From Halobacteriaceae archaeon (GTDB lineage Archaea; Halobacteriota; Halobacteria; Halobacteriales; Halobacteriaceae), in NCBI GenBank assembly GCA_042216675.1, contig JBDGTS010000010.1, positions 1 through 28,675 of the forward strand: 28,675 nt of DNA. The letters run 5' to 3'. Under the pieces are notes generated by a model. The model was given only the letters and a program-made list of their open reading frames with translations. It had not been told where the DNA came from and searched no databases. Both the position numbers and the translations under genes were made by a program. Positions 1 to 12,962 of this stretch are shown here, piece by piece. Position 1 is the stretch's first letter. Each line of letters opens with the position of its first letter.

Positions 1-316
1 CGACTTCTTCGAGCGCTTCGTCGTCTCTATCTGCCGCCAGCAGGTGTCGATGGCCTCCGCGGCGGCCATCGAGGAGCGGCTGTTCGACGCCGTCGCGGTG
101 ACGCCCCGGGGAATCCTCGACGCCGACCCCGAGACGCTCCGGGACGCCGGCCTCTCGCGACAGAAAACCGACTACGTGCGAAACGTCGCGCGGGCGTTCG
201 AGGAGCGCGGGTACTCCCGCGACTACTTCGCCGGGATGGACGACGCGGCCGTCGTGGCCGAACTCACGTCCATCACCGGTGTGGGAACGTGGACCGCGAA
301 GATGCAGTTGGTGTAA
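1..316 (+). pseudogene. alkA: 5' part of AlkA-family DNA-3-methyladenine glycosylase (HhH-GPD); starts before the window and is truncated by the element insertion
   Basis: Frame open from base 2: DFFERFVVSICRQQVSMASAAAI...LRDAGLSRQKTDY...LTSITGVGTWTAKMQL, with HhH motif ITGVGxWTA. Stops at TAA 314-316, just inside the element. Confidence 0.9.
304..310 (+). repeat. attL core (GCAGTTG)
   Basis: Identical to 6548-6554; the match extends to GCAGTTG(G/C)TGT. AlkA similarity ends here. Confidence 0.88.
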
Positions 317-439
317 CAAAGTTCGTCAATCAAATGTCTATACAGAAACCCGCCAGCCTCACGTCTCTACACGAAACGCCGATCCCGACCGAAACGGCCC
401 TCGTGTTCACCGTCACATCACCCCTCTCGACGGGCCATG

Positions 440-1175
440 TGACATGACTCTTTCACTCCTCCTTCTGTGGGTCCGTTGCAGGAAGGGGTCTATTGTCTCA
501 CTCCCCCTCCTCATGCTGTTGGGGCCAAAGCCAATTGGCGCTTGAAACTGGCCGAGGTATCACGTCCTCGCAGGGGGTTTACCCCCCAAGAGGACGTATA
601 CCGAGGCCTACCATCGTCATTTCTGTAATTACGTCCATATCAGACGAGGGGGCAATGGGAGGCCCATGTCCCATTCCGTTACCATAGTGACGTAGTAATA
701 GACGTACAGTTAACAGCCTAAGCGAAAAGCGCGTGTGCATGGCCCATCGGCGTCTTGCGATTGTAAACTTGGTTCTAACCGAGTCGGGGTCGAGTAAGAC
801 GGAATCCGAGTCCCTACTCCACCTTCTTTGTCAGCGTTCTCTGAGAAGCCTGAGAGACGGCACAGAGACGTTTCGAGTCGGACGAGAGGTAACCATCCTA
901 TCGGGACAGAAATCGCTTAGACGCCCCTCTCGCGGCTTGGGGATGAATCTATCCGAACGGGGGCATCCTCAGCAGTAACTAAGTGGCTCAAATGCCAAAA
1001 AGATGCTGGTCACTTCTATTCTGAGTCTCCTGAGCAAGACCACGTCGCTCTGACGGGACCGAACGGAGGGAAGGATGAATCCCTCTCGGTGGGTACGGGA
1101 GGTCCGCGAGAGCGCCGTCACGTCGTCTTAGGAGACTGTGAAGCGATTGACAGCAGAGGAGAGAGTCGGGTTCGG
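440..1175 (+). ncRNA. Candidate large structured non-coding RNA or structured cis element
   Basis: No acidic haloarchaeal-type ORF. Stems at 550-608, 718-725/913-920, 751-801, 923-964 and 1004-1155. Several pairs are G-U only when read on the + strand. Confidence 0.45.
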
Positions 1176-1176
1176 C

Positions 1177-1581
1177 CTACTCCCTGATAGGCCGAATTGC
1201 CTCGTCTGGAGTAAACTCGTCAAACCTCGTCACAGGCACCGTCAAGTTGGGGACGTCGTCGTCTTCTACCTCGATGACGGCGACGTCGTCGGTGACGATG
1301 CGGACGACTCCCCCGCCTAACGGCGTGTTGACTGCGTCGCCGACGTCCACCCGAGGGCCTTCTTTGGCGTGGATTCTTTCGTAGACTTGGAACGGTTCGA
1401 ACCAGACCGTTGGGACCGTCAGCGTGGCGGTGTTACCGACAATCTCGATGAAGGTCACGTCCTCGTTCATGTCACAGACGGTGCCCTCTCCAACGGGCGT
1501 CTGCACTCTCTCATCGGGGCTGACTGTCCACAGACGGGATCGGTCTTCGACGGACTCGATGTCTTCCCACCACTCACTCAT
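1177..1581 (-). CDS. Hypothetical protein with two tandem Tudor/SH3-like beta repeats
   Basis: Acidic 134-aa ORF. The pattern V.TP.G.G.V......V..IE...LTVP...F occurs twice. Start overlaps the stop of the upstream gene. Confidence 0.75.
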   Translation of the reverse strand: MSEWWEDIESVEDRSRLWTVSPDERVQTPVGEGTVCDMNEDVTFIEIVGNTATLTVPTVWFEPFQVYERIHAKEGPRVDVGDAVNTPLGGGVVRIVTDDVAVIEVEDDDVPNLTVPVTRFDEFTPDEAIRPIRE

Positions 1582-1738
1582 CGGCTTTCACCTCGGGATT
1601 GACGGTGTCGTGGCCTTGGCGGTAGCAAGACCAACATGGGATTTCCTGATCGGCACTCCAACAAGAGCAGTCGGCGGGACGTCGAGGTTGTTCAAATGAG
1701 GCGATACTCTCTTGGGTCGGCGTGTGTGACTTGCTCAT
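1574..1738 (-). CDS. Small Cys-rich (CxC...CxxC) putative Zn-binding protein, 54 aa
   Basis: MSKSHTPTQES...DCSCWSADQEIPCWSCYRQG from ATG 1738; 8-bp overlap with the next gene. Confidence 0.65.
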   Translation of the reverse strand: MSKSHTPTQESIASFEQPRRPADCSCWSADQEIPCWSCYRQGHDTVNPEVKADE

Positions 1739-1848
1739 GGGTCGTGGCACCTTCGGAAACGGCCCACCTGCCCTGCCCAAACAGGGCTTTTTCGCCGTGA
1801 CGGGTGTCACGGGTGAGTCGCTTCCTGAGTCAAACGTGACAGGCCACG

Positions 1849-1860
1849 ATTATAAATCTA
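1849..1860 (-). promoter_or_regulatory. Putative TATA box for the leftward operon (1738 to 1177)
   Basis: The minus strand reads TAGATTTATAAT in an AT-rich patch upstream of the operon. Confidence 0.4.
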
Positions 1861-2292
1861 TTGTATGAAATCTGGTAAGAGTACGGTAGCGAATCCGATA
1901 TGGGTACCCCACGAAAATTGGGTGGGGCACCCCTGTTATCCTCACTATGGGGCGGGAGCAGTTCCCTACCCCGAGATACGAGACTCGCTCATGTAGAAAC
2001 AGAGTGTTATCTCAGCGCTACACTACCGCCGTAATCCAAATGATACGTTGCCCAATTGACGACGGGCGGAAGTCGGTTTCGGCGTCGGAACCGTGGGGGT
2101 TGCGCCGTCGAAGTTGGGTTCGACGGGGATGGAAACTGTTGCATCGGCGCAACACTCACCGTGTCCGTCACGGGAGATGCAAAACATATTCCAACCGTGA
2201 CATTTTTACGCATGGGGCATCATAGACAACGTAGGCACACCTGCTTCTCACTCCCCGATTGTACCGCCCGAAAGCAACCTCCATCTACTGAG

Positions 2293-2700
2293 ATGTCTGT
2301 CTTCAACACACCCTCGATTGTCGTCTGCATCGACGCGCCGCTCCCCGACCAATCCCTCGAAATCGTTGCTGACTCCGATTCCGCCGCCATCGAAGAACTA
2401 CCTACTGACGACCGTAAGTACGTCGACCAGCACGACCACGCCGTGACCGTGACGCCTGATAACGGCTCTCGACTGACTCTCACAGGCCGAGTGAGTGAGG
2501 ACGACGCCCACATCCTCGCCGCCCTCAAAGTCCTCTCTCAAGCCGTTGACATCCGCTCACCGCCCTATGATGGCGTCGGCCAAGTGACCGCCCTCTCCAT
2601 CTGTGAAACCGACGTGTCGGGTCACACACCCCGTCTCGATGACGACGCCATCCTCGCCGTCGACGTCGAAATTGACCTGTTCAACGCCACAGGTGAGTGA
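2293..2700 (+). CDS. Putative GpU-like tail tube initiator / baseplate protein, 135 aa
   Basis: Acidic ORF from ATG 2293. The pattern RLTLTGRV...LAALKVL...YDGVGQVTALSICET...VEIDL resembles the P2 GpU fold. Lies directly before a GpD-like gene. Confidence 0.5.
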   Translation: MSVFNTPSIVVCIDAPLPDQSLEIVADSDSAAIEELPTDDRKYVDQHDHAVTVTPDNGSRLTLTGRVSEDDAHILAALKVLSQAVDIRSPPYDGVGQVTALSICETDVSGHTPRLDDDAILAVDVEIDLFNATGE

Positions 2701-2702
2701 GT

Positions 2703-4073
2703 ATGTCAGCAGGCCCTCCAACCGTCGACGGCCAGCACACTATCGAGGAGATCGTCTTTCGTGGGACCAAGCAGACACCACAGAAAGACGTGCGTGTTTT
2801 CGTCGGTGACGTAGAGATTCCGACCATCGACATCATCGGACGTGAGACACCCGCCGTCTCCGTGGATATGCGGACGGACGGTCCTGCGGCTATCGTCAAA
2901 TACTCTGACATCATCTTCCCCTCGACGTGGCGGGATGACAGCGTCTATGACGCAGTCGAGTACCAAATACGACACGTCGACGCCCCCGTCCGCATCGAGG
3001 CCCGCATTCCCTCAGCAGGCGAAGGTGACGACTATACGACGATCCACTATGGACCGATTCGGTCAGACGTCGGAAGTGCCGACGACGGACGGGCTATGCG
3101 GATGAAAGTCGGCGACGTGAGTGATGCGTTCCGTTCGATAGGGTACGGTGCATCGTACAACCAAGCCGACCCCCAGTCTGTCCTCGAAGACATCCGTGAC
3201 GAGGCGGTGGAGAATCTGCCGTACATCGAGGAGTTAGCCATCGAGAATCGGTTTCCGACGTTCGACAACTACAAAGCAAACCACGTCTCGATCACGTATC
3301 AGCGGAATCGTGACACCATCGTGAGTGCCCTGAACGAACTGACGGGGAGAGTCGGGTTCAGTTGGTATGTTACCTACGACGACGAAACACAGAGTCCGAA
3401 ACTCGTCGTGGACGACCCTTCCCCATCAGAGTCGTTCTACTGGCGAGGGTTGGGTGACGACGCCGCTCATGGCGACTCCCGAGGCGACGATGGGACATAC
3501 GTCTCCATCCGTGAGAACCGTGCCTTAGCGAACATTTCACCGACGTACAAACTCGGAGTGTGGGGCAAGTCGGATGAGTCGACGAAGGCCCCGTCAGCAG
3601 GCGACTACGTCGGTCACGCCATCAATCCGACTAACTCGTTTGTGCCGCCGAAGAAAAACCCGTCCGCCGAGGCACCCTACGTCGTCGTAGTTCATGAAGG
3701 GCTGAAGGAGCGGGCGCTACACAGCATCGAGACGCCACCTGAGACGAACGTCGACGCGACGACGTTGGAACAGGCGACAAAGAAAGCGAAACAGAAGTTC
3801 ATCGACAGACTCGGAAATGCAGGTGGCGGTCGTATCCGAACGGTAGGCCACCCCACCATCCGTCCCAACGACAGTCTCACTACGTCTATTGTCACCGACG
3901 ACGGGGGTCACGAATTAGTAGACCCGACCACCTACGGGGTGACACGGGCGACCCACACGTTCCCTGCGACTGGTGAGTATTTCGTGGACTGTGAGGTCAA
4001 CATCTCTGCGACGAAAGATGATCTCGCCGTCGAGACAGCGGAGATGCGTCCTGTCTTTGGCGACGGCGAGTGA
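2703..4073 (+). CDS. Phage late-control D / baseplate hub (GpD/Mu gp44-like) protein
   Basis: TYQRNRDTIVSALNELTGRVGFSWYV and the C-terminal TVGHPTIRPNDSL...YGVTRATHTF...GEYFVDCEV match GpD-type patterns. GGTGA SD at 2692-2696 precedes ATG 2703. Confidence 0.65.
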   Translation: MSAGPPTVDGQHTIEEIVFRGTKQTPQKDVRVFVGDVEIPTIDIIGRETPAVSVDMRTDGPAAIVKYSDIIFPSTWRDDSVYDAVEYQIRHVDAPVRIEARIPSAGEGDDYTTIHYGPIRSDVGSADDGRAMRMKVGDVSDAFRSIGYGASYNQADPQSVLEDIRDEAVENLPYIEELAIENRFPTFDNYKANHVSITYQRNRDTIVSALNELTGRVGFSWYVTYDDETQSPKLVVDDPSPSESFYWRGLGDDAAHGDSRGDDGTYVSIRENRALANISPTYKLGVWGKSDESTKAPSAGDYVGHAINPTNSFVPPKKNPSAEAPYVVVVHEGLKERALHSIETPPETNVDATTLEQATKKAKQKFIDRLGNAGGGRIRTVGHPTIRPNDSLTTSIVTDDGGHELVDPTTYGVTRATHTFPATGEYFVDCEVNISATKDDLAVETAEMRPVFGDGE

Positions 4074-4291
4074 GCCACCCATCCCCCCTCTCCATCCCTC
4101 GGCCATCGTGGCCTGAACGTGATGGCGTCCGTCCAGCCCCCTCGTGGGGCAAGGACGCCTGTCACTCCACCTTCCCCGCTGTTCCATCGGGAATTCGGAG
4201 GCCATACCCCTACCTTCACGCCTCGAAGATGGGGATGGACGCCCCCGTATTGTCTGCTAACTGCTGACGACTCTCTAACTGACGCCAACAT

Positions 4292-4663
4292 ATGGCTGAT
4301 TCTGATTGCGGACGTGAGATTGCGTACTCGACTCGGGAAGCAAACGAAGCAGGTGACTTCATCGTGGGACGGTGCCCTCGATGTGTAGATGGACTAGCGT
4401 GGCACACCCCCCGTGGGCACGTCTGTGATCGGTGTTTCACAGTTTTCGACGTCTACGACGAACCGACCGTTCCTCAGAAGCAAGCCGAACGGAGACGTGA
4501 CCGACACCACAAGAGGGCACGACGGAGACGTGACCGTGGCCGATACGATACCAGCAACGACGTGCGACTGTACGGTGGCTACGACCGTGCGTATCCCGAC
4601 GAGTGGACGGACGAGGACGCCACCGTCGAACCAACCCACCTTCGGACGTGGAAACGGGGGTAG
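4292..4663 (+). CDS. Zn-ribbon protein with Arg-rich basic segment
   Basis: CPRC...CDRC motif followed by ERRRDRHHKRARRRRDRGRY. Confidence 0.7.
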   Translation: MADSDCGREIAYSTREANEAGDFIVGRCPRCVDGLAWHTPRGHVCDRCFTVFDVYDEPTVPQKQAERRRDRHHKRARRRRDRGRYDTSNDVRLYGGYDRAYPDEWTDEDATVEPTHLRTWKRG

Positions 4664-4672
4664 CAGTCTTTG

Positions 4673-4780
4673 CTACGCAATAACCTTGGCGTAGATGATG
4701 AAATACACGATCAACAGCAGGAAAACGCCAATCGTTACCTGCAACTGAAACTCTGCAAGTGTCATGGCAAGCGGTAGCAT
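4673..4780 (-). CDS. 35-aa single-pass membrane peptide
   Basis: MLPLAMTLAEFQLQVTIGVFLLLIVYFIIYAKVIA. TTTAA box (4806-4810, minus strand) lies 26-30 nt upstream of ATG 4780, the leaderless promoter spacing. Confidence 0.55.
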   Translation of the reverse strand: MLPLAMTLAEFQLQVTIGVFLLLIVYFIIYAKVIA

Positions 4781-4999
4781 AGTTGGTTTTCTAACACGAC
4801 GGGAGTTAAATCTTGGTGCCCCTTCATTTCGGCCTACCACGGTGGCGTGGACGTCGAGTGAGGCCATCCGTGTACCCCCATCATACCCTCTCACGTATGG
4901 CTATCGAGGCGGGCGATAGGCCCGAGGAGGCTGTCTTGGTACCCTCATCGACTGTGGTTTGCGTCCGTTATAGGAGTTATAATCGTCTCTAAGGGAGTC

Positions 5000-5971
5000 T
5001 CATCCGCCCTCATCGAACCGTTGATGGAACGCTTCGGTGGCATCGTCGGACGTAACTTCAAGATAGACCTGAGTGGTGGAAATGTCCTCGTGACCGAGGT
5101 GTTCTTGCAACATCGGTAATTGGATACCGCTCTTGACCGCCTGTACCCCGTGGCTGTGGCGCAACGTATGCGCCGTTACACGCCACCGCGTCTTTCCTGC
5201 CGCGTCTTCACCGAGCGGTTCCTGAATCCCCGCCTCATGTGCCGCCTTCTTGATCATGTCAGAGGCGCTTCCCTCCGACATCTGCGGGGATTTTCGCGTC
5301 AGAAAGAGGTAGTCGGATTCCTCCGAGACGGTGTATGCGTTCCTATATTTGCCGACCCATTGATCGAGTAGAAGGTTCAGAGAGGGTTGATAAGCGACTG
5401 TTCGTTTATCATCTGTTTTCTCGTCGTTGATTTGGATAGTCCGCTCGTCACGGTCGACGTCGTCAAGTTCGATACTTCGGAGTTCGTGTTCACGAACCCC
5501 CGTCTCCCACATCAGACGGACGATTAACTCGTTCCGAACTTGCGGTGCAGGGACGTTTTCGCAGAGGGCTTCCTTCTCGTCGTCGGTGATATAGACAATC
5601 CCCTCGTCGCCTGCATCGGTGTATTGCTCCTTCATCGTGGAGTTGGAGATCACCGTATATTCCCCGTAATCCACTTTCTCGACGGGATTCTCGTCTTCAT
5701 CAATCACCTCGATTTTCGCCGTCAGGAAGTCGTACAGGGCACTCAGAGCGGTGTATCTCGATTGAATCGTGGCCCCTTGGTATCCCTCGTCGTTGAGATG
5801 AAGTAGGTAGTCTTCGACGTCTACCCAATCCACATTTCGCGGATCGCTCCCATCGTACCAGTTCGAAAACTGGCGAATATCCGACCGCCACGTATCGGCG
5901 GTTCCCTCACCCTTCGTTCCTTCGAGGCGCTGCAAGAACCGTTGGACGTGTTCGTTCTCGAAGAAGGTCAT
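5000..5971 (-). CDS. int: Tyrosine recombinase/integrase (XerC/D-like)
   Basis: Complete catalytic set: ETGVREHEL (R), DEKT (K), HTLRH, LGHE, TTQVY. N-terminal SAM-like core-binding domain. Confidence 0.95.
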   Translation of the reverse strand: MTFFENEHVQRFLQRLEGTKGEGTADTWRSDIRQFSNWYDGSDPRNVDWVDVEDYLLHLNDEGYQGATIQSRYTALSALYDFLTAKIEVIDEDENPVEKVDYGEYTVISNSTMKEQYTDAGDEGIVYITDDEKEALCENVPAPQVRNELIVRLMWETGVREHELRSIELDDVDRDERTIQINDEKTDDKRTVAYQPSLNLLLDQWVGKYRNAYTVSEESDYLFLTRKSPQMSEGSASDMIKKAAHEAGIQEPLGEDAAGKTRWRVTAHTLRHSHGVQAVKSGIQLPMLQEHLGHEDISTTQVYLEVTSDDATEAFHQRFDEGG

Positions 5972-6489
5972 ACGTCTGCCTCCTTCCAGTAGCGCGTTTC
6001 ACCGTCCTCACCGACAATCGTTCTCACCCTACTCGTTGCTGAGAGTTGATTCAGGACACCCTGCGTGTTGATATTGGGGATGTTCACCCAGTTCAGTTTC
6101 TCCGCCAGTTCATCGGCAGTCATGGCTTCATGAGACGATTCAGGGAGGGCACCGAACGCCTCGTTTTCGATACCTGATGGGTCGGGAGCGTTCACTTCCT
6201 TCTCGACGCCCTCGACGGCGTCGTGAATATCGCCTATCTCCTTCTCTATCCGTTTTAGGCGGCGTTGAACGTCGGCATACTCCTCGTCACGACTTTCCAA
6301 TACATCACGGAGGTCGTCTTTGCTCAATCCTCCATCACCGCTGGTCCCGTCATCCTCGATGTGCTGGTTCACGGCGAAGCGGATGAGGAAACTCAGATTC
6401 TCGATATTCGGGTCTTCCTCGACGTAGTCTTCCCATCTCTCCTTCGTCTCCGTATCGACACGGAGGTTGATTTGGCTTCTCTGAGGCAT
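5968..6489 (-). CDS. RHH/CopG-like regulator with coiled coil and C-terminal winged-helix-like segment (candidate repressor or directionality factor)
   Basis: N-terminal SQINLRVDTETKERW...LSFLIRFAV; central heptad-like region; C-terminal MTADELAEKL...VLNQL. ATGA overlap with the integrase. Confidence 0.75.
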   Translation of the reverse strand: MPQRSQINLRVDTETKERWEDYVEEDPNIENLSFLIRFAVNQHIEDDGTSGDGGLSKDDLRDVLESRDEEYADVQRRLKRIEKEIGDIHDAVEGVEKEVNAPDPSGIENEAFGALPESSHEAMTADELAEKLNWVNIPNINTQGVLNQLSATSRVRTIVGEDGETRYWKEADV

Positions 6490-6517
6490 CGTCCGTGTTC
6501 ACCATCACCCTCTACGT

Positions 6518-6542
6518 CTATAAAACTGATATAAGTTTTCCC
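6518..6542 (-). promoter_or_regulatory. Promoter/operator of the regulator-integrase operon
   Basis: The minus strand reads GGGAAAACTTATATC (BRE plus TATA) and TTTTATAG, overlapped by the palindrome AAAACTgATATaAGTTTT at 6522-6539. Confidence 0.55.
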
Positions 6543-6547
6543 AACAC

Positions 6548-6554
6548 GCAGTTG
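6548..6554 (+). repeat. attR core (GCAGTTG)
   Basis: Identical to 304-310; AlkA similarity resumes here. Confidence 0.88.
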
Positions 6555-6728
6555 CTGTTCAGCCTCGGCCGACCCGACGTGTTCCCCGTCGAGGACCTCG
6601 GCATCAGGAAGGCGATGGAGTCTGTGTGTGGCGTGTCCGACCGCGATGCGATGGTCGAACGGGCCCGCGACTGGCGCCCACACCGGTCGTACGCGTCGCT
6701 GTACCTCTGGCGCGCGGCGGACGAGTGA
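6549..6728 (+). pseudogene. alkA: 3' part of AlkA-family glycosylase
   Basis: QLLFSLGRPDVFPVEDLGIRKAM...WRPHRSYASLYLW contains the GPD region with the catalytic Asp and the typical AlkA C-terminus. Confidence 0.92.
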
Positions 6729-6729
6729 C

Positions 6730-7449
6730 TCAGTCCGCCTCGCCCACCGTGTTCCGAAGCGTTCCGACGCCCTCGTACGTGATCTCGATTTCGTCGCCGG
6801 GGTCGACGAGTCCGGGGTTCGCCGGACTGCCGAAGGCAATCACGTCGCCGGGCCGGAGCGTGAATCGCTCGGAGAGGTAGGCGACGATTTCCCGCACGTC
6901 GAACAGCATCAGTTCGGTGTTCGCGTCCTGCCGTCGCTCGCCGTTGATGTCCGTGTGCATGTCGATTGCCGTCGGGTCGACGTCCGTCTCTATCCACGGG
7001 CCCAGCGGTGCGGACCCGTCGAAGGCCTTGCGGGCCGTCCGCCCCTGCTGGTCGAGGGCGTCCACGTCGTCGAGAATCGTGTAGCCACGCACCACGTCGG
7101 CCACGTCCTCGGGCGCGACGTTCCGACAGCGTTCGTCGACGACCGCCGCCAGTTCGCCGGCGTAGGTGAGTTCCTCAGTGAAGTCGGGATAGGGAATCGA
7201 CTGTCCGTGGGCGAGCAGCGCCGTTGGCGGCTTGATGAAGAAGTCCGGCTCCTCGGGTCGCTCGTACGCCATCTGGTCGAGCGTCTCGGCGTAGTTCCGG
7301 CCGACGCAGTACAGCGCCGTCGGCTCACACGGGGAGAGCAGGCGGCCGTCCCGGCCCACCTCGTACGTGCCGTCGTCGGCGTGAATCGTGCCGTCTTCGT
7401 AGCGGCCCGACACCGGTCCGTCGGGAGTCAGCAGGCGTGCGAGTCGCAT
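6730..7449 (-). CDS. Fumarylacetoacetate hydrolase family protein
   Basis: CVGRNY, FFIKP, YAGELAAV, KAFDGSAPLGP and TLRPGDVIAFGSP motifs. Confidence 0.92.
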   Translation of the reverse strand: MRLARLLTPDGPVSGRYEDGTIHADDGTYEVGRDGRLLSPCEPTALYCVGRNYAETLDQMAYERPEEPDFFIKPPTALLAHGQSIPYPDFTEELTYAGELAAVVDERCRNVAPEDVADVVRGYTILDDVDALDQQGRTARKAFDGSAPLGPWIETDVDPTAIDMHTDINGERRQDANTELMLFDVREIVAYLSERFTLRPGDVIAFGSPANPGLVDPGDEIEITYEGVGTLRNTVGEAD

Positions 7450-7537
7450 ACCGCTCGTTCTTCAGCGGTACCGGAAAGGGCTACCGAACGGCTGCCGGGA
7501 GCCACAGGACTTTACCGAGGTGCGACGATGCGTTCCC

Positions 7538-8497
7538 ATGGAGTACACCACACTCGGCGACACCGGTCTGACGGTCTCTCGCCTCTGCTTCGGGACGTGG
7601 CGGTTCAACCGCGAGAGCGACGGCACCGTCGAGACGACGCGAGAGGAGGCCCACGACCTACTGGACGCCTGTGAAGACCACGGCGTGAACTTCATCGACA
7701 CCGCCAACAGCTACGGCGGGGGCAAAAGCGAGGAGTGGATCGGCGAATGGCTGGCCGACCGGGACCGCGAGGACTACGTCGTCGCCTCGAAGGTGTACAA
7801 TACTCAAGAGAGCCGATTCGCGGGCAACCTCTCGCGCAAGAACATCCGCGCGGAAATCGAGGGCACGCTAGAGCGTCTCGACACGGACTATCTGGACCTC
7901 TACTACATCCACCGCTGGGACCCCGAGACGCCCATCGAGGAGACGCTCCGCACGCTCACCGACCTCGTGCGCGAGGGGAAAGTCCACTACCTCGGCGCCT
8001 CGAACCTCGCCGGCTGGCAACTGACGAAGGCGCTCTGGACCAGCGACCGCGAGGGACTCGAACGCTTCGACGTCATCCAGCCGTGGTACAACGCCGCGTA
8101 CGGCGACCACCCGCCCGCCGAGATTCAGGTCGCGGCGGACCAAGACGTCGGCGTCTGCAACTTCCAACCCCTGTACGGCGGCTTCTTCACCGGGAAGTAC
8201 GAACGCGACGGCGGCGGGGAGGGCCGCCACACCGACCTCTCGTCGTTCCACGAGAGCGACTGGGCGGTCCTCGACGCGATCCGAGACGTCGCCGACGAGG
8301 TGGACGCGACGCCGACGCAGGTGGCGATTCAGTGGTGCGTTCAGCAGGACGACTTCACCTGCGTCCCCATCTTCGGGGCCCGCGACCGGGACCAGTTCGC
8401 GGAGAACGTCGGCGCCCTCGACGTGACGCTCTCGGCGGAACAGGTCGCCCGCATCGACGAGGCCGGCGCGGCCGGGGCCGTCGACCCGCCCGCCTGA
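7538..8497 (+). CDS. Aldo/keto reductase
   Basis: MEYTTLGDTGLTVSRLCFGTW, FIDTANSYG, SEEWIG, DLYYIHRWD. TATA-like CTTTAC about 28 nt upstream. Confidence 0.93.
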   Translation: MEYTTLGDTGLTVSRLCFGTWRFNRESDGTVETTREEAHDLLDACEDHGVNFIDTANSYGGGKSEEWIGEWLADRDREDYVVASKVYNTQESRFAGNLSRKNIRAEIEGTLERLDTDYLDLYYIHRWDPETPIEETLRTLTDLVREGKVHYLGASNLAGWQLTKALWTSDREGLERFDVIQPWYNAAYGDHPPAEIQVAADQDVGVCNFQPLYGGFFTGKYERDGGGEGRHTDLSSFHESDWAVLDAIRDVADEVDATPTQVAIQWCVQQDDFTCVPIFGARDRDQFAENVGALDVTLSAEQVARIDEAGAAGAVDPPA

Positions 8498-8503
8498 GGG
8501 GCG

Positions 8504-9679
8504 CTACGAGTCGGCGACGATGCTCGCCACGCGGTCCCGGTCGAACAGGCGTTCGTCCTCCGGAATCTCGGGATACGGCTCCCCGGCCGTGTAGCCCGGC
8601 CACGTCCCGAACTGCTCGGGATACAGTTGCTTGGCGGTCATCTCCAACTGGAAGAGGTTCATCAGCGGTCCCTGCACGGGGTTGCCCGAGGCGTACACCC
8701 GTCCCTCGTCGACGGCCGTGATGCGACTGCCCACGGCGTGTGACTCCATCGCGCTCCGCTTCGCCGCCACGTCGTAGTAGGAGGCGACGCTGAACTGGTG
8801 GAGGATGACGTCCGGGTCGCGTTCGAGGAGGGCCTCGTAGCCGACGGCCCCGCTCTCAGCCGGGTTCTCGGCGAAGACGTCCGTCGCGCCCAGCGGTCGG
8901 ACGTGGGCGTTGCCGAACCCGGGCGTGTTGATGGTCGAGGGGTAGAACGTGCCGTCCATGAGGATGACCGACGCGACGGACGGCCGCTCGCTCTCGGGCG
9001 GCAGGTTCGATTCGATGGTCGACAGGACGTCGTCGTGGACGGCCTTCAGGTCGGCGTAGCGGCCACCTTCCCGAAAGACGGCCGCAACGCGTTCCGCAAT
9101 CTCCCACAGCGTGTAGTACTCGTAGTCGTCCTGCCACGACGTCGGCGGCGTGCCGTGGGCCCGGCTGTAGATGTTGCCGAACCACGGCCCGACGTTCTCG
9201 CGCACGTCTTCGACGTCCGAGCGCTTCCAGCCGTCGAAGGAGGTGACCAGCGCGGGGTCGGCGAGGTGGAGGTCCGACTGCAGGTCGAAGAACACCTCCT
9301 TGTCCACCTTGATGCTCCCGGATCCGCTGTTGAGTTGGGTCAGCCCCTCCCGGTCGAAGGAGACGCCGTCCAGACGCTCGTAGTAGGCGTCGAGGGTTCG
9401 CCCGCCGGCGTCGGCGTCGAAGCCCAGCGAGTTCACGCCGTCGCCGTGGCCGTACGCCACCGCCATGTCGGCGTAGTTGAGGCTGTACACCATCAGGTCC
9501 GAGGGCACTTCCTCGAACGTGACCTCGCCGACCGGCGCCATCGACGCCGAGTGCGTCCCCCCTGTCGTCGTCTCGTCCGTCGCCCCCGAGTCGCCGCTTC
9601 CACTACTACAGCCGGCGGCAACTCCGGCGAGAGCGACTGCGCCGCCCCGCGCCAGCCACTCGCGTCTCGTCAGGTCCAT
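8504..9679 (-). CDS. Tat lipoprotein, ABC-type iron-siderophore/cobalamin substrate-binding protein
   Basis: TRREWL Tat motif, AAGC lipobox, GYEALLERDPDVI, AVDEGRVY. DtxR-like boxes upstream. Confidence 0.85.
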   Translation of the reverse strand: MDLTRREWLARGGAVALAGVAAGCSSGSGDSGATDETTTGGTHSASMAPVGEVTFEEVPSDLMVYSLNYADMAVAYGHGDGVNSLGFDADAGGRTLDAYYERLDGVSFDREGLTQLNSGSGSIKVDKEVFFDLQSDLHLADPALVTSFDGWKRSDVEDVRENVGPWFGNIYSRAHGTPPTSWQDDYEYYTLWEIAERVAAVFREGGRYADLKAVHDDVLSTIESNLPPESERPSVASVILMDGTFYPSTINTPGFGNAHVRPLGATDVFAENPAESGAVGYEALLERDPDVILHQFSVASYYDVAAKRSAMESHAVGSRITAVDEGRVYASGNPVQGPLMNLFQLEMTAKQLYPEQFGTWPGYTAGEPYPEIPEDERLFDRDRVASIVADS

Positions 9680-9683
9680 GGAT

Positions 9684-9733
9684 TTAGGCTCGCCTAATCG
9701 AATAAAGCGCTTTCGAAGTTTCGGCGGGCCTAA
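9684..9733. promoter_or_regulatory. Two DtxR/Idr-type iron boxes flanking a TATA box
   Basis: TTAGGCTCGCCTAA (9684-9697) and TTCGGCGGGCCTAA (9720-9733) resemble the DtxR core TTAGGTTAGCCTAA. Minus-strand TTTATT lies between them. Confidence 0.7.
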
Positions 9734-9737
9734 AACC

Positions 9738-10418
9738 TCAGTACAGCAGGTCGGCGTCGTTCTCGACCATGTAGAGCGTGCGGGCGGCGATGTTCACCGC
9801 GTGGTCGCCGACCCGTTCGAGGTCACGAATCGTCAGGAGGACGCGCGACACGTCCTGCATCAGGCGCTCGACTTCCTCGTCGGAGGTGGGGCCTTCGAGT
9901 TCGCGTTCGATGAGGTCCCGGACGACGAGTGCGGAGGCGTCCCGACAGCGTTCGTCGATGTCGTCGTCGCGGTCGGCGATTTCGTAGCAGGCCTCCGGGT
10001 CGCGGTCCGCGTACGCCATCATCGCGTCCTCGACCATCTCGATGGTCTGTTCGCCGATGGCCTGTACGTCGACTTCGGGGAACACCTCCTGTTCGGCGTC
10101 GAGGGTGTAGCCGCCGAGGTTGGTCGCGAGGTCGCCGATGCGTTCGAGGTCGGTGAGAATCTTGAACGTGGCCGCGATGAACCGCAGGTCGCCCGCGACG
10201 GGTTGCTGGAGGGCCAAGAGGTCGATGCAGTCCTGTTCGAGGTCGAGATACAGTTCGTTGATTTCCTCGTCGCGTTCGATGATGTCGCGGGCTTGCTCCT
10301 CGTCCTTGCGTTCGAGGGCGTCGAGGCCCATGCGCAGCCGTTCGAGGACGATTTCGCTCATGTAGAGAACGTCGTCCCGGAGAGAGTCGAGTTGCTCCTG
10401 ATAGCCTTCGCGTGGCAT
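9738..10418 (-). CDS. phoU: Phosphate signalling protein PhoU
   Basis: LQQPVAGDLR, DLERIGD and LERVGDHAVNIA repeats; follows pstB. Confidence 0.95.
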   Translation of the reverse strand: MPREGYQEQLDSLRDDVLYMSEIVLERLRMGLDALERKDEEQARDIIERDEEINELYLDLEQDCIDLLALQQPVAGDLRFIAATFKILTDLERIGDLATNLGGYTLDAEQEVFPEVDVQAIGEQTIEMVEDAMMAYADRDPEACYEIADRDDDIDERCRDASALVVRDLIERELEGPTSDEEVERLMQDVSRVLLTIRDLERVGDHAVNIAARTLYMVENDADLLY

Positions 10419-10466
10419 GTGTCGTGTTCAGACGCTCACTGCAATGTAGTTTGGGGGCGGCCGCCG

Positions 10467-11336
10467 TCAGCCGAACTTCCCGGTGATGTAGTCCTCGACG
10501 CGCTCGTTGTCCGGGTTCTCGAAGATCTTCTCGGTGTCGTCGTACTCGACGAGTTCGCCGCCGGTGAGGAAGACGGCCGTCTGGTCGGAGATGCGGGCCG
10601 CCTGCTGCATGTTGTGGGTGACGATGATGACCGTGTAGTCGTCGGCCAAGTCCTCGATGAGGTCTTCGATTTGGCTCGTCGCGACGGGGTCCAGCGCGCT
10701 CGCGGGTTCGTCCATCAACACGACTTCCGGATCGGGCGCGATGGCGCGCGCGATGCAGAGTCGCTGTTGCTGGCCGCCCGAGAGGTCGGTTCCGGACTCG
10801 TCGAGGCGGTCGTTCACCTCGTCCCAGAGCGCCGCCCGCTCGAGTGACTCCTCGACGACTTCGTCGTAGTCGGCGTCGACGTCCTGAATCTCCAGGCCGT
10901 AGGTGACGTTCTCGCGGATGGATTTCGGGAACGGGTTGGGTTGCTGGAACACCATCCCCACCCGGCGACGGAGCGCCACCGGATCCACGTCGTCGTCGTA
11001 CACGTTCTTGCCGCGGAGGTAGAGGTCGCCCTCGACGCGCGCCGCGTCGATGAGGTCGTTCATCCGGTTGATACACCGGAGGAACGTCGACTTCCCACAG
11101 CCGGAGGGACCGATCATCGCGGTGACGCTGTTCTCGGGAACCGTGAGGGAAACGTCGTTGAGCGCTTGGTCGTCCTCGTACCAGACGCTGACGCCGTCGG
11201 CCTCGACGACCGTCGCGCCCGAGTCGATGCCTGCGGGGTCGTCGCCGTCGAGTCCCGCGGACACGTCCGTCTCTATCAGCGTGTCGCCGTCGGTCGGGTC
11301 CTTAGTGGGTCCGGACCCGGATGTGTCGTTGGACAT
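10467..11336 (-). CDS. pstB: Phosphate ABC transporter ATPase
   Basis: [40 protein letters not shown]. Confidence 0.96.
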
Positions 11337-11348
11337 TTGTCGTAGCAC

Positions 11349-12962
11349 TCAGTCTGAGCCCTGAAACCTGTTTCGTAGGATGATCGCGATGCCGTTCATC
11401 GTCAGCAGGATTATCAGCATCGTCACCACGCCCGCCGGGACGATGCCGGTGCGGAACGCGCTCTCGGGGAGGAACGCGAGGTTGTAAATCTGGAGCGGAA
11501 CCGCGGCCGCGGGCGCGAAGAAGCCGTCGGGGACGCCGAGATACAGCGAGGGCGCTGCGATCATCAGGAGGGGCGCCGTCTCGCCGATGGCGCGACCCAG
11601 CGCGAGGATGGTCCCCGTGAGGATGCCCGGCATCGCCTGTGGAAGCACGACGTTCCTGACGGTTTGCCACCGCGTGGCCCCCATGCCGTAACTGGCCTGC
11701 CGCGCCGACTCGGGGACGGACCGAATCGCCTCCTGTGCCGAGATGATGACGATGGGGAGAATCAACAGGCCGAGTGCGAGCCCCCCGACCGCGATGGACC
11801 CCGCCTCCATCCCGAAGGTGTTGATGAAGATGGCGAGTCCCAGCAGGCCGTACACGACCGAGGGGACGCCCGCGAGGTTCGAGATGTTCACCTTGATGAA
11901 CCGGGTGAGGCGGTTGGCGGGCGCGTACTCCTCGAGGTACACCGCGGCGCCGACGCCGACGGGGAACGCGAAGACGACGACGACGATCATCAACAGGAGC
12001 GACCCGACGACGGCGGGGAACACCCCCACGGTGTCGGGGAACGAGGTGTTCGGGAGGTTCGTCAGGAACCGCCAGTTGAGCCACGGGCGCGGGCCAGTGA
12101 CGGAGAGTGCGTCCGCGACGGCCGCGCCAGCGAGGGAGCCGACGACGACAGTCGCCGGGAGCGCGACGCCGGCCGCCGAGCGCTCGTCGCTCTCGACCGC
12201 ACGCCACGCGTGTACCGCGGCCGGCACCAGCCCGAAGAGCGGAATCAGCACCGCGTCGCCGGGACTGAAGCCGGTCTGCAGGCCGATACCGTAGCCCGCG
12301 GCGGTCACGCCGGCGAACGTCAGGCCGCCGCCGAGGTAGCCGTCGCGTCGATCGTCGCGGATCAGCGCGACGTAGCTTCCGACCACGGCGGCGCCGGGCA
12401 GGACGAGCGTGAGGACGACGATGATGAAGTCACTCGGGAGCATCGCCAGCGAGCCGATGAGGGCGGCCACGCTCGGGACGACGCCGGGTAGGCCGAACAG
12501 CGCCAGTCCGAGCAGGACGGCCGTCAGGAGCAGTCGCGCCGTCTCGGGCACGCCCGTGTATCGGCCGAGGACGGCGGTCAGGCCCGCGACGAGCGCCACC
12601 GGAACGACGGTGGCGAACCACGTCACCGGCTGGACCGCGACGAAGAAGATGCCCGTCCCCGCGGCGACCATGATGCCACCCCACAGCGCTACGGCGTTCT
12701 CGGTGCCCATCCGGATGCCGCCGCGCCGCCGGAGCGCCGCGCCCACGGCGGCTGTCGGGACGACGAGCGTGAGGAAGTAGACTAGGAACCACGCGGGGGA
12801 CGCCGACTCGAGGTCGAACGCCTGATAGGTGACGTAGGCCAGTAGTGCCGCGAGCGCCACGATGCCGATGAGCGAACTCGCCAGCAGGACGATTCGGAGC
12901 GCGATGACCTTTCGTCGGCTGACCCGTCCGAACCCCCCGTCGGACGATGACTCGTGGGCCAT
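11349..12962 (-). CDS. pstA: Phosphate ABC transporter permease PstA
   Basis: YLEEYA, LAGVPSVVYGLLG, ALGRAIGETAPL; extended N-terminal membrane region. Confidence 0.95.
   Translation of the reverse strand: MAHESSSDGGFGRVSRRKVIALRIVLLASSLIGIVALAALLAYVTYQAFDLESASPAWFLVYFLTLVVPTAAVGAALRRRGGIRMGTENAVALWGGIMVAAGTGIFFVAVQPVTWFATVVPVALVAGLTAVLGRYTGVPETARLLLTAVLLGLALFGLPGVVPSVAALIGSLAMLPSDFIIVVLTLVLPGAAVVGSYVALIRDDRRDGYLGGGLTFAGVTAAGYGIGLQTGFSPGDAVLIPLFGLVPAAVHAWRAVESDERSAAGVALPATVVVGSLAGAAVADALSVTGPRPWLNWRFLTNLPNTSFPDTVGVFPAVVGSLLLMIVVVVFAFPVGVGAAVYLEEYAPANRLTRFIKVNISNLAGVPSVVYGLLGLAIFINTFGMEAGSIAVGGLALGLLILPIVIISAQEAIRSVPESARQASYGMGATRWQTVRNVVLPQAMPGILTGTILALGRAIGETAPLLMIAAPSLYLGVPDGFFAPAAAVPLQIYNLAFLPESAFRTGIVPAGVVTMLIILLTMNGIAIILRNRFQGSD

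Follow-up and report, generated by a model that had tools for sequence, protein, structure and literature searches.

The stretch of DNA analysed here (the window, 28,675 nt) is the whole of one contig, C28, of a 58-contig, 2.15-Mb haloarchaeal assembly rated 80% complete. Its start falls within a DNA glycosylase gene, called alkA below, leaving only about 104 codons of the 5' part of that gene visible. The gene is split by a putative integrative element, a 6,244-bp insert (311 to 6547 plus one 7-bp core, GCAGTTG) that forms a discrete unit between 7-bp direct repeats. The features of the split gene are as follows.

2 to 316, forward strand: alkA 5' part, bearing the helix-hairpin-helix (Pfam PF00730) and ending at a TAA at 314 to 316
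304 to 310, forward strand: attL core GCAGTTG, its seven letters fitting both sides of the joint of 303 to 6548
311 to 6547, no strand: body of the integrative element, 6,237 bp, from GC content and the joint
6548 to 6554, forward strand: attR core GCAGTTG, at the joint of 303 to 6548
6548 to 6728, forward strand: alkA 3' part with the Gly/Pro-Asp loop (GRPDVFPVEDLG), stop TGA at 6726 to 6728

At the left junction the 5' part of alkA reads ...ACC GCG AAG ATG CAG TTG followed by GTG TAA, such that its reading frame ends Met-Gln-Leu-Val-stop two codons inside the element; at the right junction the 3' part reads ...CCCAACAC and then GCAGTTG CTG TTC AGC.... Both visible halves are open, with neither stop nor frameshift, as had been stated in the original prediction, which was made from the letters of this DNA alone. 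The 5' part matches the helix-hairpin-helix (HhH)-GPD family (PF00730, E 1.7e-13) and carries the HhH itself (LTSITGVGTWTA), the Gly/Pro-Asp loop is on the 3' part, and an uninterrupted allele on contig C19 of the same assembly, to which the 5' part is 87% identical in amino acids (aa), combines the two in one frame. The cut thus falls between the HhH and the catalytic Asp loop, inside the signature motif of the gene, and because it leaves the catalytic Asp (PVEDLG) on the detached 3' part, the integrated allele should be null and give no active glycosylase, in agreement with the earlier expectation for an allele truncated two codons into the element. The guanine-plus-cytosine (GC) content of the interval is 0.52 to 0.61 versus 0.64 to 0.73 past position 6600 (0.563 for the element body versus 0.663 for window positions 6548 to 12000).

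The empty site was found both in the assembly and in public data. C19 holds alkA uninterrupted over the junction (...ITGVGTWTAKMQLLFSLGRPDVFPVEDLG), and its translation matches the predicted exact in-frame rejoining of 304 to 310 with 6548 to 6554. The end of C19 overlaps window positions 6548 to 6602 over exactly 55 nt with 100% identity and window positions 1 to 55 are also identical to C19; these 55-nt overlaps at both ends correspond to de Bruijn graph branch points at k = 55. The same joint (303 to 6548, skipping 6244 nt, with seven letters fitting both sides) is present in contigs of two public salt-lake runs of one study (X1 and X2), which were used as assembled contigs only, where stretches without cover are uninformative and rare variants are dropped. 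Over the stretch in which the two local alleles were compared (45 to 358 of L002, the C19 locus, and 1 to 314 of the window), the uninterrupted allele is the more abundant one.

The empty alleles lie on haplotypes other than that of the element. The C19 5' half differs from the window at 22 of 309 nt (93% identical), with 12 non-synonymous and 9 synonymous codon differences. The empty-site contig of X1 (depth 22.5) has C19-type letters at both allele-specific places that it reaches (256 and 258), the remaining 20 C19-type letters being on a separate contig at depth 21. X2 has a mosaic empty-site contig (1,630 nt, depth 9.73), in which eight positions between 56 and 129 are C19-like and the stretches 143 to 303 and 6548 to 6929 are identical to the window (0 differences). 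The element-linked flank is thereby shown to be a chromosomal allele, and because the flanks of the junction are identical to those of an empty-site allele, sequence comparison shows the insertion to be recent, at least relative to an empty allele. The listed element pieces stand at depths of 3.9 to 5.1 in X1 and 3.1 to 4.8 in X2, and window-type letters at 157 to 224 make up about 2.4 to 10.6 of the summed contig depth in X1 (6.5 at most places), which roughly equals the depth of the element, contig depths being a rough guide and not cell shares. Neither a circular joint nor an empty site on the element's own haplotype was seen in the X1 and X2 contigs, which is no proof of absence. The population is thus polymorphic for the insertion; since the empty alleles are different haplotypes (22 of 309 nt, or mosaic) and no circular form was seen, we read this as insertion polymorphism rather than excision, and the excision that had originally been proposed is not supported, nor is it demonstrated by the polymorphism.

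A survey for split alkA genes with related integrases, suggested in the original prediction as a check, returned five further cases in haloarchaeal genomes or contigs, all split at the same codons (Lys/Glu/Asn-Met-x-Leu) by elements of 3.5 to 11.5 kb.

L035 (same place as L050, a Halovenus strain): core AGATGTTCCTGAT, 3,454 bp core to core, from the order survey
L036: core GTTCCTCATGT, 4,015 bp core to core, from the order survey
L046/L053, in a 2.7-Mb contig: core ATGATGCTC, 11,481 bp core to core, from the integrase-alignment search
L083, in a 771-kb metagenome contig: core ACATGCAACTC, 6,440 bp core to core, from the integrase-alignment search
L065, a 9,364-bp contig: core ATGCAACTCCTGT, 9,180 bp core to core, from the integrase-alignment search

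The cores span 7 to 13 bp and are all different, each lying on the Met-x-Leu codons after the HhH and each being the local host alkA sequence. Visible alkA halves are open in all six cases, the interrupted frame stops 0 to 19 codons into the element, and the GC content of the six elements is 0.44 to 0.56 versus 0.60 to 0.70 for host flanks (measured for four). The cases fall in different genera (the family labels of the search tool place G000 and G218, the genome of L036, in one family and G349, the genome of L035, in another), and even where host alleles are about 90 to 92% identical, as in L083 and L065 (85/94 nt and 91/99 nt), the elements differ. Comparison of the junctions thus shows six independent elements to share one predicted attachment site (attB), the Met-x-Leu codons between the HhH and the catalytic Asp loop. 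Descent of the other five cases from a single, vertically inherited insertion is unlikely, given that they differ in core, size and cargo.

These elements are rare and patchy. In the order survey a 197-aa orthologue of AlkA matched 374 of 401 sampled genomes, and among the 150 of 443 matches listed we followed up ten genomes, picked because they had at least three matches, because their best E-value was weak, or because a fragmentary assembly gave two matches. Two of these have alkA split by an element (G218 with L036 and G349 with L035), one has contig breaks flanking the site (G085), one an internal deletion (G156), one an N-terminal truncation (G387) and two partial genes at contig ends (G290 and G194), and the remaining three have an intact gene plus paralogues (G243, G101 and G122). 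Counting the genome of the window itself, alkA is split in at least 3 of the 401 sampled genomes. No alkA locus with a related integrase was found in five relatives compared by coordinates (G011, G023, G024, G030 and G036, from 40 relatives searched). G085 is a seventh, ambiguous case: its contigs stop at ...GVGEWTA and resume at GREDVFPV... (L037 base 1 and L038 base 2493), so that exactly the att stretch is missing, and the breaks match what a polymorphic insertion might do to an assembly graph. Damage of other kinds was also noted. A deletion plus frameshift in one alkA copy of G156 (L040 1926 to 2427, contig C84) removes the HhH and the att stretch (orthologue residues about 102 to 140), a second, intact copy being on another contig, and the damaged copy could be the scar of an imprecise element loss. 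The alkA of G387 (L039 7048 to 7284) lacks the first approximately 110 residues and has Gly-Asn-Leu-Gly in place of the catalytic Asp of its relatives. Near both alkA copies of G156, and in the 10-kb locus of G387, there was no integrase, partner or other element gene.

The only genes common to all six elements (all-against-all BLASTP of open reading frames (ORFs) of at least 60 aa) are an integrase and, directly upstream of it, a partner protein of 170 to 194 aa. In the window these are:

5000 to 5971, reverse strand: tyrosine integrase, 323 aa, with a SAM-like N-terminal domain (PF00589 at 107.4 bits against a cut-off of 27.1, PF02899, PF13495; phrog_1)
5968 to 6489, reverse strand: partner protein, 173 aa, overlapping the start of the integrase by 4 nt (5968 to 5971), with homologues upstream of the integrase in 6/6 elements

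Integrase residues R160, K185, H268, R271, H294 and Y303, which we take to be the catalytic ones, are invariant in an eight-sequence alignment, and the insert is thus, as had been anticipated, a discrete integrase-bearing unit between short direct-repeat cores. An assignment of the integrase to archaeal XerA (NCBIfam NF040815) was rejected, as the score is 159.2 bits against a cut-off of 220 and the gene lies in a low-GC insert absent from other alleles. The window integrase is 33 to 39% identical to those of the other five elements, and its closest relative in a large protein collection (58% identity) is on a 2.7-kb contig. The best 15 of 273 matches to phage records are to bacterial phages only, all below 26% identity, and no relatives were found in a viral contig collection by alignment search or in genome contigs by a single-protein locus search. 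The partner, whose gene starts about 60 nt from the core in the window, has no Pfam, PHROG or NCBIfam match. A structural model from eight sequences (mean predicted local distance difference test score (pLDDT) 75) has two N-terminal helices, a long helix (57 to 99) and a C-terminus of three helices plus a hairpin, in blocks with pLDDT 81 to 91. Foldseek returned weak matches only (E 4e-3 to 6e-2), nearly all to winged-helix DNA-binding domains, a weak indication that the modelled C-terminus may be a winged helix and the protein DNA-binding-like; the conserved pattern of the N-terminus would fit a ribbon-helix-helix-like fold.

A phylogenetic tree of the integrases (31 sequences, after removal of five duplicates and two wrongly extracted sequences) places those of L036, L083 and L035 in one clade with 100/100 support, and those of the window, L065 and L046 dispersed among relatives that either lie on contigs too short to tell or show no alkA piece within 9 kb. 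The alkA target changes three times on the tree, at least two of these changes being forced by the starred branches, and a single origin is obtained in 0% of bootstrap trees, which points to repeated adoption of the site or else to exchange of the module. Orientation also varies: in L053 (698 to 12187) the partner-integrase operon abuts the alkA 5' half on the strand of the gene, and in the other five elements it abuts the 3' half on the opposite strand, so that the L053 element is inverted relative to alkA. Short repeats occur in the arms of several elements. GTATAGAC is present in both arms of L053, and its reverse complement, GTCTATAC, in the left arm of the window element, with a 7-of-8 copy in the right arm. 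In L035, L036 and L083, the members of the 100/100 clade, an AT-rich motif (AAAATAGTTTT) lies about 10 to 30 nt from the core in the arm beside the alkA 3' half and TTTCAA repeats lie in the opposite arm, both being candidate promoter or arm-type binding sites. No tRNA genes were found in the window or in 13 related loci of up to 9 kb (among L041-L049, L060, L066, L069, L072 and L081), and in L041 and L042 the genes next to the partner-integrase pair look like ordinary host genes; coding or intergenic sites may be the general targets of this integrase group.

The interrupted gene encodes a short AlkA2/Mag-type glycosylase of about 197 aa. The 197-aa orthologue (L006) matches solved 3-methyladenine glycosylases (2yg8, E 1.5e-28; 2h56, E 4.7e-27) and the Mag1 and Mag2 proteins of S. 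pombe (E about 1e-18 to 1e-19). Identity with the E. coli-type AlkA was rejected: the NCBIfam equivalog model NF007641, which represents the full three-domain protein of about 285 aa, scores 44.5 bits against a cut-off of 229 and is matched at model positions 93 to 275 only. Given the low score, the length of about 197 aa and the partial match, alkA is a loose name for the gene. In the genomes of the 36 relatives scoring E <= 6e-29, the best match lies in a stop-free open frame of at least 199 aa. No genes of the Tag, AAG or AlkD families were found in this 80%-complete assembly, and for that reason element-bearing cells may repair alkylated purines poorly.

Besides the common module the elements carry varied cargo. 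The remaining features of the window element, and the host gene that follows the split alkA, are:

1177 to 1581, reverse strand: ORF of 134 aa, no family (weak PHROG match only, E 0.0021)
2056 to 2700, forward strand: ORF of 214 aa, no family (Pfam and PHROGs negative), its end overlapping the start of the hub-like gene
2697 to 4073, forward strand: baseplate-hub-fold protein (Mu gp44 / T4 gp27 / gpD type), 458 aa, from model and Foldseek
4292 to 4663, forward strand: ORF of 123 aa with two Cys-x-x-Cys pairs (from the translation), no family (Pfam and PHROGs negative)
6730 to 7449, reverse strand: host neighbour, fumarylacetoacetate hydrolase family (PF01557, E 1.9e-53)

The AlphaFold2 model of the 458-aa protein (pLDDT 82, predicted template-modelling score 0.81) matches PDB entries with E 1.3e-15 to 1e-9 in Foldseek, always hub proteins of contractile injection systems, phage or virus tails, including Mu gp44 (1wru), T4 gp27 (1k28_D) and the tail of Haloferax tailed virus 1 (9h4p_BD). 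It is also 21% identical (tblastn, E 2e-9) to the annotated "baseplate hub" of Haloarcula tailed virus 2. An exhaustive search gave 118 relatives where a word-based search gave the protein itself alone; no Pfam match was found in any of 31 family members, no PHROG or NCBIfam match for the window protein, and no relative in the viral contig collection by single-protein locus search. The L065 element encodes a homologue (2397 to 3869, reverse strand; 22% identity, E 6e-8), and since this is a different, 9.2-kb element, the hub is best regarded as cargo of mobile units. A 73-aa ORF has no PHROGs match, and the element DNA has no match in phage and plasmid collections. The window element could be the remnant of a tailed virus, or a satellite using the tail of a helper. 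The L036 element, for its part, carries a complete alkA of its own (5197 to 5775, reverse strand, 192 aa) with both HhH and Asp loop, a GC content of 0.52 versus 0.68 to 0.70 for the host, 52% and 72% identity to the two halves of the host gene, and a different sequence at the position of the host core. It would be an old passenger that replaces the lost function and is not itself a target, which suggests that the host pays for the insertion.

Taken together, we consider it likely that site-specific integrative elements use a conserved coding stretch of alkA as attB and truncate the gene by doing so. The integrase, aided or steered by its partner, would recombine a short core of the circular element with the identical core in alkA, a site that would be used because it is conserved, as is the case with tRNA genes; the att stretch is among the best conserved parts of a gene present in most haloarchaea. 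In the population studied here the element would be a selfish insertion segregating at minority depth, and it can probably still excise, given an intact integrase, two intact cores and two intact gene halves. The alkA carried by one element and the minority depth of another are in keeping with a cost to the host, and the rarity of the elements, their occurrence in different genera, their varied cargo and the alkA of L036 point to selfish elements rather than a host device.

A host device was nonetheless what the original prediction had proposed, namely a regulated switch in which damage-induced excision restores alkA and later re-integration returns the cell to a repair-off or mutator state, reversibly, as for SpyCI in mutL. 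We regard this as unlikely, even though exact removal of the element would give back the reading frame, open halves are seen in six of six cases, the integrase keeps all six conserved residues, the assembly yielded no further family of 3-methyladenine glycosylases, and the elements resemble cryptic switch elements in being small and without a recognisable set of virion or replication genes. The empty sites belong to haplotypes other than that of the element, and the excision product of the element-linked haplotype was not seen; the near-equality of window-type letter depth and element depth in X1 leaves little room for an excised subpopulation (a weak point, given that these are contig depths), no circular joint was seen in contigs, and no replication gene was recognised that would maintain an excised circle. 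Moreover, the elements are rare, patchy and fixed in no lineage, their cargo varies between cases, and the alkA of L036 fits loss of the gene as a cost to offset and not a service. The wider proposal of a class of small elements that toggle alkylation repair, triggered by damage via the partner protein and generating a mutator-like subpopulation upon integration, is accordingly graded as doubtful. If true, Archaea would have here their first gene switch of the "active lysogeny" type, one at which distinct integrase lineages arrived on two or more occasions at the same three codons, and the named strains behind L050 and L046 make the question testable.

It is also improbable that the insertion is a dead-end knockout, an immobile remnant (of a tailed provirus, for example) that is unable to excise and leaves alkA heading for decay. 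The lone baseplate-hub-like gene without other recognised virion genes, the three element ORFs without a family (1177 to 1581, 2056 to 2700 and 4292 to 4663) and the intervals without long ORFs (311 to 1176 and 1600 to 2055) would suit such a remnant. However, there is no damage to the integrase, the partner gene or either core, the 6,244-bp unit is present or absent as a whole in the population, a related hub is found in the different element of L065 (9.2 kb), and flanks identical to the empty-site allele over 143 to 303 and 6548 to 6929 indicate a recent insertion. Decay of the split halves in relatives, named beforehand as a sign of simple knockout, was not seen in any of the six cases, although recent insertion explains their open frames equally well. 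A third alternative, that the cell expresses the two alkA fragments, using a promoter at the element end for the 3' one, and that they assemble into a two-piece enzyme such that the integrated state is not null, is very unlikely. Most haloarchaeal mRNAs are leaderless, a Met codon is kept at the head of the 3' part in five of six cases, and the AT-rich motif lies about 10 to 30 nt upstream of the core in L035, L036 and L083, but the window itself has lost that Met codon (ACG at 6546 to 6548), the motif could equally well be the promoter of the divergent partner-integrase operon, and the whole alkA in the L036 element argues that a split gene is insufficient. An assembly artefact in which C28 is a chimera of a free plasmid and the chromosomal alkA can be set aside as extremely unlikely: this contig of a metagenome-assembled genome does start and branch at 55-mers shared with C19, and the attR junction is poorly covered in public contigs, but building C28 needs a 55-mer spanning allele-specific base 258 and the first element bases, the window-type stretch 143 to 303 is chromosomal in X2, and the same architecture is found within contigs of 288 kb, 771 kb, 2.70 Mb and 2.73 Mb.

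Several points weigh against our preferred reading of alkA as the landing site of selfish elements. Excision, integration and loss of glycosylase activity have not been observed directly, and the attR junction is thinly covered in the public contigs (bin 6319 to 6552, depth 1.15 and 0.21), for which reason support for the filled junctions comes from C28 and from the parallel with the other cases. The coupling between site and integrase lineage is loose, as the three integrases outside the clade have relatives without an alkA piece within 9 kb. No replication or packaging gene, and apart from the hub no virion gene, was recognised in the window element with Pfam and PHROGs. Finally, the more abundant C19 allele carries odd substitutions: at the 12 residues that differ between the local alleles, the element-linked allele matches 19 orthologues 123 times versus 35 times for C19, and at six positions C19 has residues found in 0 of the 19, including an Asp for a Tyr that is invariant in 19/19. 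alkA may for this reason be under weak constraint in this lineage, making a costly insertion less sure.

What is new is alkA as a recurrent landing site; gene-specific integrative elements are known already as a kind. Genomic islands at dusA of bacteria reportedly restore the end of the gene that they enter, whereas here the gene is truncated and not repaired by element sequence, the hosts are archaeal, the target is alkA and at least two integrase clades are involved. The likeness lies in the arrangement described for dusA-specific integrases and their islands, which carry diverse cargo and occupy, across many genomes, one site within a protein-coding gene that is conserved (PMC4482086). In the haloarchaea, too, independent elements occupy one site in one conserved gene across taxa (six cases); a single integrase lineage coupled to the site is not what the tree indicates. 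Interruption systems of another kind are the skin element in sigK and the phage in comK of Listeria. With SpyCI, which interrupts mutL of Streptococcus pyogenes (PMC4129442), the present elements share the breakage of a DNA-repair or conditionally needed gene by a mobile element and a precise join that restores the frame, here seen in C19, X1 and X2. Excision of SpyCI, skin and the comK phage is regulated by growth phase or development, and no excision was observed here; alkA is a landing site that recurs, and to call it a proven genetic switch would be premature. The L036 element is in addition a clean natural example of a mobile element offsetting its own damage.

Site-specific integration into protein-coding genes is poorly documented in Archaea (PMC8371274). 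An attB inside a coding gene is on record, for example in the HMG-CoA reductase gene for Halorubrum virus BJ1, but the coding-gene cases reported there are single and untested and do not include alkA (PMC8371274), whereas here six independent elements share one site. We found no report of alkA as an archaeal attachment site in the literature searched, which included the pertinent text sections of PMC5861418, PMC8371274 and a 2025 preprint on haloarchaeal viruses, supplements being outside its scope. A known system of comparable organization, as far as the corresponding sections of its two reports describe it, is the SNJ2 module, a tyrosine integrase with small accessory proteins (coiled-coil and MarR-like) that assist integration (PMC5861418, PMC8371274). 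There, as here, a haloarchaeal tyrosine integrase belongs to a module common to unrelated elements, its upstream neighbour here encoding a candidate accessory protein, and att cores are short in both (14 bp in SNJ2, 7 to 13 bp here), SNJ2-type elements being described in the same sections as residing in tRNA genes with three intergenic exceptions, whereas here attB is inside a protein-coding frame (PMC5861418). In place of the separate SNJ2 accessory proteins described in those sections, a single partner would, according to its model, combine helix-helix, long-helix and winged-helix parts. With at least two integrase lineages and both orientations represented at alkA, a coding stretch can play for haloarchaeal elements the part that tRNA genes play.

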